IMG/VR virus record: IMGVR_UViG_2734482558_000010
Direction: 5' to 3' (one strand)
DNA from: a virus
Lineage: Duplodnaviria; Heunggongvirae; Uroviricota; Caudoviricetes
DNA length: 6,061 nucleotides
Shown: piece after piece, positions 1 through 99 of the stretch
Numbering within the stretch: the stretch's first letter is position 1
Layout of the letters: every line of letters begins with the position of its first letter
Position numbers and translations under genes: made by a program
The notes under the pieces: model-generated
What the model was told of the DNA's origin: nothing
Database searches by the model: none
Seen by the model: only the letters and a program-made list of their open reading frames with translations

Positions 1-99
1 TGGGGAATATCTCCCCGGCAGCCTTCAGGGAAAAATATCATCAGATGGCTGCTTAAAAAAAGAACAAATGGTAGTGTCCGCTATTGCCAGTACACCTCA
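1..99. repeat. Left copy of a 99-bp perfect terminal inverted repeat (partner at 5963-6061)
   Basis: Reverse complement of 5963-6061 equals 1-99 base for base; identity ends at position 100 (t versus g). The repeat contains the upstream region and first ~10 codons of the ORF starting at 68. Confidence 0.9.

Follow-up and report, generated by a model that had tools for sequence, protein, structure and literature searches.

The window, by which we mean the whole 6,061-nt stretch of DNA analysed here (IMG/VR record IMGVR_UViG_2734482558_000010), is very probably a short-read contig of Shigella sonnei type, bounded by inverted copies of the insertion sequence IS600 that have each been cut after 99 bases. 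Its ends form a perfect terminal inverted repeat and, judged by sequence identity, the repeated DNA corresponds to the last 99 nt (the right, or IRR, end) of IS600, an IS3-family element with the tip ...CACCTCA, rather than to prophage DNA. We infer that the source organism was S. sonnei and, by extension from other genomes, that full IS600 copies lie beyond both ends of the window in the source strain.

The mechanism that we propose for this structure combines transposition with an effect of assembly. IS600 would have inserted at a TCC in a gene of the phage nin region (left) and at an intergenic TCC (right), in inverted orientation and with the IRR ends facing inward. A piece of degraded lambdoid prophage of about 5.9 kb, comprising the nin region, the Q antiterminator and the tRNA cluster, would be enclosed between the two copies. 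Given that IS600 is a multi-copy element, a de Bruijn-graph assembler would stop at the last k-mer contained entirely in the IS. Each end of the contig would then halt k (here 99) bases into IS600, producing the perfect 99-nt terminal inverted repeat.

The terminal repeat and the right end of IS600

A repeat finder run on the window returned two arms of 99 nt (1-99 and 5963-6061) that are 100% complementary across a spacer of 5863 nt, and found no further long inverted repeat within the window. Direct reading of both ends placed the divergence from base 100 and base 5962 onward. The chance expectation of a perfect 99-nt inverted repeat in 6 kb is about 6061^2/2 x 4^-99, and the repeat cannot have arisen by chance. 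The first-pass annotation had reported exact reverse complementarity of the two ends and an abrupt end to the identity, and both observations hold, the breaks falling between 99 and 100 and between 5962 and 5963. It was also correct that the open reading frame (ORF) 68-298 has its ATG (at 68) and its first 10 codons (MVVSAIASTP) inside the repeat, and that the right end carries a truncated, inward-facing copy, which reads MVVSAIASTPQDSGHVMPVSR and then a stop. Its proposal that the repeat breaks inside a gene start is right in its coordinates and wrong in its biology, the break being the outer tip of an insertion sequence. The features of the window are as follows.

1-99, + strand: IRR end of IS600, left copy; the tip is at base 99 and the remainder of the copy is beyond the left end of the contig
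3-56, + strand: last 17 codons and stop of the transposase gene orfB; translation GNISPAAFREKYHQMAA, then the stop
68-298, + strand: fusion ORF; its IS600-derived part comprises the ATG and 10 codons plus two bases, with the junction inside codon 11
100-102, + strand: TCC on the inner side of the left IS600 insertion, one of the two copies of its 3-bp target-site duplication
100-5962, + strand: lambdoid prophage segment between the IS600 tips (5863 nt)
within 100-5962: small ORFs of the nin region
939-1264: sok RNA/hok (Rfam sok antitoxin RNA; Hok/Gef ORF at 1052-1264)
1842-2900: DUF968/HNH (Pfam)
2901-3281: RusA (Pfam)
3278-4132: antiterminator Q (Pfam)
4235-4310: tRNA(CAU), Met by ARAGORN and annotated as tRNA-Ile in related RefSeq genomes
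4235-4500 and 5402-5531: phage tRNA cluster
4411-4487 and 5442-5518: two tRNA-Arg(UCU), within a 121-nt direct repeat that is 91% identical
4987-5118: DUF3927 (Pfam)
5133-5401: run of 269 N (scaffold gap or mask)
5595-5784: STnc100-like sRNA (Rfam), after the tRNA cluster and shortly before the right IS600
5960-5962, + strand: TCC on the inner side of the right IS600 insertion, one of the two copies of its 3-bp target-site duplication
5963-6061, - strand: IRR end of IS600, second copy; the tip at 5963 faces the segment and the remainder lies to the right of the contig

The assignment to IS600 draws on several lines of evidence. In a megablast search of complete E. coli genomes, positions 1-99 matched 2887 of 5426 genomes, at a median of 2 and at up to 43 places per genome. 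All of these matches lie under features annotated as 'IS3-like element IS600 family transposase', with 100% identity to the element terminus. In E. coli E2865 (L001), 1-99 maps to 1601-1699, the extreme 3' end of a 1264-bp IS600 (436-1699) that begins with TGAGGTAGCC and finishes with GTACACCTCA, and whose frameshifted transposase coding sequence ends at 1656.

Every feature of IS600 and of the IS3 family that could be tested was found. The element has 5'-TG...CA-3' tips and imperfect terminal inverted repeats (IRL, TGAGGTAGCCTGAGTTTAACGGACACT; IRR in reverse complement, TGAGGTGTACTGGCAATAGCGGACACT), and the break in identity in the window falls exactly after ...CACCTCA. Target-site duplications of 3 bp occur as CGC/CGC on either side of the E2865 copy, as TCC/TCC around the right copy in locus L004, and as TCC for the left copy. 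The two-ORF arrangement, in which a programmed -1 frameshift yields a transposase with HTH and DDE (rve) domains, is recorded in the RefSeq annotation ('programmed frameshift'), and the Pfam families HTH_Tnp_1, HTH_21, rve and rve_3 match genes at both junctions in L004-L013; of the transposase, the window itself holds the last 17 codons only. Target sites that are empty in relatives were found for the left insertion (L002) and for the right one (L003, L005 and L010). Because the IRL and IRR of IS600 are imperfect copies of one another, perfectly complementary ends mean that one and the same tip, IRR, occurs at both, inverted and pointing inward. The break in identity at 100/5962 marks the physical end of IS600. 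IS600 is abundant in Shigella and occurs in many E. coli; the element in the window shows no difference from it, although only its terminal 99 nt lie inside the window.

The enclosed DNA is ordinary lambdoid sequence, as indicated by Rfam, tRNA and Pfam scans, and its gene order is matched in S. sonnei chromosomes. A degenerate remnant resembling a tRNA is present at about 4340-4400. Positions 4598-4951, located between the tRNAs and the gene for DUF3927, could encode a 117-aa ORF with a TTG start and no Pfam match; this ORF is not called in related assemblies and is probably not a gene.

The two insertion sites in other genomes

Neither junction is bridged in any complete RefSeq E. coli genome: with 1-300 as query the alignments start at 99/100, and with 5785-6061 they stop at 5963/5964. 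This absence is as expected for strain-specific IS insertions. An exact scan for the left junction among genome contigs and for the right junction among metagenome contigs gave no match. The chromosomes that were retrieved include those of Shigella sonnei UKMCC1015 (CP060117) and Shigella sonnei 2015C-3566 (CP022457). In eight of the ten chromosome-sized loci (L004, L006-L009 and L011-L013), window positions 1-4197 and 5402-6061 align at 99.7-100%, both junctions included, and a full 1264-bp IS600 is present at 8769-10032 (+) and at 16398-17661 (-), exactly at the two junctions of the window. The two copies in L004 are identical at all 1264 positions and enclose 6365 nt. The remaining two loci, L005 and L010, have the left copy only. 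A lack of any inverted repeat around this segment in the finished genome had been named beforehand as the outcome that would count against a real structure; the repeat is present in these eight sequences, as full-length copies of the element. All Shigella species have undergone expansion of five insertion sequences, IS600 among them, and their reference chromosomes each carry 229-348 IS insertions; two inverted copies with rearranged flanks fit the documented expansion of IS600 and the IS-mediated rearrangement in this genus (PMC7373316).

The right insertion is a simple, strain-variable one with a 3-bp TCC duplication. It hit intergenic DNA downstream of the phage tRNA cluster, at a site seen uninterrupted in L003 as gaccgctaTCCttccaggccc (...gaccgctaTCC/ttccagg, the slash marking the insertion point). 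In L004 the same site reads ...gaccgctaTCC/IS600(-)/TCCttccaggccc, with TCC on both sides of the element and an outer flank that is collinear with uninterrupted L003, and in L005 and L010 the site is empty.

The left insertion has a more complex history. Its uninterrupted site in L002 reads ...gatcgctaTCC/atcacc and lies in a hypothetical 87-aa gene of the phage nin region (L002 2437-2700), whose native start in uninterrupted relatives, at L002 2437, is 65 nt upstream of the insertion point. A full IS600 is present at this junction in L004-L013. In the finished genomes the left copy has no duplication in place, the outer flank reading ...aatttt/IRL and the inner one IRR/tcc. The 5' half of the interrupted gene is found inverted, 2.2 kb to the left of IS600, and ends exactly with a copy of TCC (L004 6200-8768; also L005-L011 and L013). 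This displaced half abuts a 3' fragment of an integrase gene beside ompW, at a junction that holds no IS600 (gacaccaca/GGAcagcg, at L004 6542/6543). A block of roughly 1 kb, running from DUF977 to DUF4014 and carrying an IS1 insertion, is inverted, and one of its breakpoints is exactly at the IRL tip. Aligned to the uninterrupted gene of E. coli M16807, the halves have exactly 3 nt in common (3468963-3468965). The presence of TCC on both of the separated gene halves indicates that the left copy began as a simple insertion at TCC and that its outer flank was rearranged later. The left IS600 of L012 has another outer flank (8729-8768), and in L009 the region farther to the left differs (1-8300; Mu-like com/mom and tail genes). 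These differences show further IS-associated rearrangements between finished S. sonnei genomes.

A consequence of the left insertion concerns the ORF at 68-298, which had been taken for a gene with a duplicated start. Downstream of the IS-derived codons, the ORF continues in frame as residues 23-87 of the native 87-aa protein, and the native N-terminus, MATLTKKERAWLNELQEVLDRY, is lost. Both the native start and the native N-terminus differ from those of the ORF, which is a fusion of IS tip and phage gene and not the native gene. A Pfam scan found no family for its protein, and a scan of positions 1-400 detected no sigma-70-like promoter directed outward from the IS tip. Gene calls identical to the fusion protein occur in 795 index blocks, of which 83 contain contigs longer than 1 Mb. 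Draft contigs that carry it are mostly 2-10 kb long, a size consistent with IS-to-IS intervals.

Assembly effects and competing explanations

The boundary between IS and phage DNA is constant between assemblies of this locus, whereas the length of IS600 retained at the contig ends varies: 98/98 nt in the whole contig L018, 107/107 in L050, 48/52 in L022, 34 in L016 and 31 in L021, and from 31 to hundreds of nt across the IS600-terminated whole contigs that we examined. Since the retained length differs from one assembly to another, the value of 99 was very probably determined by the assembler, and the length of the repeat is in this sense an assembly effect; a k of 99 would be the corresponding setting for the source assembly. 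The window shares with repeat-bounded de Bruijn-graph contigs in general an equal truncation at both ends (99/99), inside a multi-copy element and at a length that changes between assemblies. It differs from them in that the same IS tip stands at both ends in opposite orientation, which is a real property of the genome, namely inverted flanking copies. L050 (IMGVR_UViG_2734482560_000006) is an independent, whole contig of 6236 nt whose two ends likewise form a perfect terminal inverted repeat, in this case 107 nt of that IS600 tip. Its cataloguing as a viral genome fragment illustrates how IS-bounded scraps of prophage enter viral databases.

The interior of the window reads, from sequence comparison, as a mosaic of two prophage paralogues joined across the 269 N, and as a whole it is identical to no finished genome. 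Positions 1-4023 follow the finished S. sonnei arrangement (L004) except for one base at 1306, 1307-5132 are identical to a paralogous prophage (L019), and an exact stretch of 2.9 kb (1083-4023) is common to both prophages. From 4024 the window follows the paralogue, and a different tRNA/DUF3927 module comes next. An 8-nt deletion at 4093 removes the usual stop of Q, so that Q is lengthened to 284 aa; this variant turns up in 385 index blocks, in none of them on a contig longer than 200 kb. Beyond the run of N, position 5402 falls in the 3' portion of a tRNA (ggggttcaagtccccgatggcggtcca), and the 660 nt from there to the end are 100% identical to L004 15837-16496. Positions 1-5132 are 100% identical to positions 9-5140 of the gap-free L050, including the private base at 1306, which supports this part as real contiguous sequence; beyond it, L050 runs to a different IS600 junction (...ccttataccc/IS600). 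Draft scaffolds of the region are mutually inconsistent, with duplicated modules in L015, L017, L018 and L020, and in L026 and L111 the DUF3927 module is contiguous with the same cgctatcc/IS600 junction as in the window. With the mosaic joined across the N, the physical link of 5402-6061 to 1-5132 rests on the gap, and the right-hand 660 nt are presumably adjacent in the source strain.

These observations leave some room for a scaffolding mis-join, in which both IS600 tips are genuine and derive from two different IS600-bounded intervals, 5402-6061 having been attached from a paralogous remnant across the N. This account would explain why L050, identical over 1-5132, ends at another junction with its own 107-nt terminal inverted repeat, why 5402-6061 matches the finished-genome variant perfectly with the 269 N as the sole join between the two pieces, and why other draft scaffolds disagree and the 284-aa Q is confined to contigs of at most 200 kb. 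Set against it are the read-pair support that scaffolders normally need for such links and the variant in L026 and L111, in which the DUF3927 module is joined to cgctatcc/IS600. We regard a mis-join as possible, though doubtful. The main conclusion would be unchanged even if it were true, as L050 is also bounded by inverted IS600 IRR tips. The idea that the whole structure is an artefact, with unrelated loci at the two ends, a collapsed common 99-mer and no real flanking inverted repeat, is very improbable: the length of the repeat is a commonly used k and the contig stops exactly at the repeat on both sides, but eight chromosome-sized S. sonnei sequences have full inverted IS600 copies at both junctions, the boundary of the repeat is the IS600 terminus to the base, and 3-bp target duplications are present. 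The earlier suggestion of an assembly-graph artefact with k = 99 was thus very probably right as to the length and mistaken as to the junctions. The other early suggestion, a real inverted duplication or recombination breakpoint, was borne out in so far as the inverted repeat is real in finished genomes, and failed in placing it in prophage DNA with a recombination point inside a gene. In its specific form, an inverted duplication or recombination between prophage copies that duplicated a phage gene start at the far end, it has almost no probability left. Genomes of this type do contain several paralogous lambdoid prophages with identical stretches on the kilobase scale; the 99 nt are nevertheless IS600 and not phage, the native gene start and N-terminus differ, and both sites are free of the 99 nt in uninterrupted relatives. 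It is the identity of the repeat as IS600 that refutes a prophage-prophage duplication.

Two further readings start from the IS600 pair. If the pair and the Q/tRNA module had moved as one composite transposon, in the manner of Tn10 or Tn5, two identical inverted IS copies bracketing a cargo would be expected, and in this respect the window resembles Tn10/IS10 and Tn5/IS50. It differs from them in having no target duplication spanning the unit, in arms that inserted independently and in the absence of one arm from related strains. The outer flanks form no direct repeat (in L004, ...aatTTT/IRL on the left and IRL/TCC... on the right), the right IS600 has its own TCC/TCC and an outer flank that continues the same prophage collinearly, the left copy occurs alone in L005 and L010, and the enclosed DNA sits in its normal prophage context. 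All retrieved occurrences share the same inner junctions and the same right-hand prophage context. Taken together, the separate duplication, the single-copy strains and the normal context indicate that the two IS600 copies arrived separately, and we consider a composite transposon extremely unlikely. Recombination between the inverted 1.26-kb copies might alternatively flip the 6-kb module and uncouple the lysis genes from Q. Inverted repeats that are identical over 1264 bp make good substrates for recombination, and the differing outer flank of the left IS600 in L012 shows that copies here do recombine. However, with the nanS-like and holin genes to the right taken as reference, all eight of the chromosome-sized sequences with both copies have one orientation, and the left copy is joined to the outer flank of the right copy in no finished sequence, so that an invertible segment is highly unlikely. 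Two separate IS600 insertions into a lambdoid prophage, truncated by assembly, remain the explanation that we prefer.

Target sites and wider significance

The two IS600 targets resemble each other. Both have the 8-mer CGCTATCC directly before the insertion point and TCC as the duplication; its positions are 95-102 and 5955-5962 in the window, 2497-2504 in L002 and 2671-2678 in L003. The 8-mer resembles part of the IRR of IS600 itself (tCCGCTATtgcc), which contains a similar CCGCTAT. A general target preference of IS600 was considered as the cause of the shared 8-mer and rejected, because 226 distinct IS600 end flanks gave no consensus (at most 0.11 bit per position), with GCTAT in one flank only other than those expected. 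Target capture by resemblance to the inverted repeat has been described for some members of the IS3 family. Such IR-like capture by IS600, or an inversion mediated by the IS end at the left copy that left no duplicated IS, is improbable in our estimate. If true, either would be a minor mechanistic novelty for IS600, and neither concerns the 99-nt repeat.

In practical terms, a perfect terminal inverted repeat of k-mer-like length that ends at a TG...CA tip on a short contig should be read as two inverted IS copies lying beyond its ends. To take it for a hairpin, an inverted duplication or a previously undescribed mobile element would be a mistake, and the finding is useful mainly for quality control. 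The ORF at 68-298, which automated pipelines call in hundreds of assemblies, is a fusion and not a native gene. More generally, contigs from IS-rich genomes with multiple prophages can combine paralogous prophages in their interior, on either side of a gap.

That IS copies bound a contig of an IS-rich genome is ordinary and already known biology. IS600 copies also flank the stx region of a defective prophage in S. dysenteriae type 1; the interval described here differs from that region in containing no toxin gene. IS-driven decay and rearrangement of prophages in Shigella have been documented (Hawkey et al. 2020, PMC7373316; Seferbekova et al. 2021, PMC8072062), and the present case is alike in that a lambdoid late-regulatory region is cut by IS600 and IS1, with strain-variable insertions and rearranged flanks. 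Biologically, it provides one more example of the well-documented expansion of IS600 and decay of prophages in Shigella.
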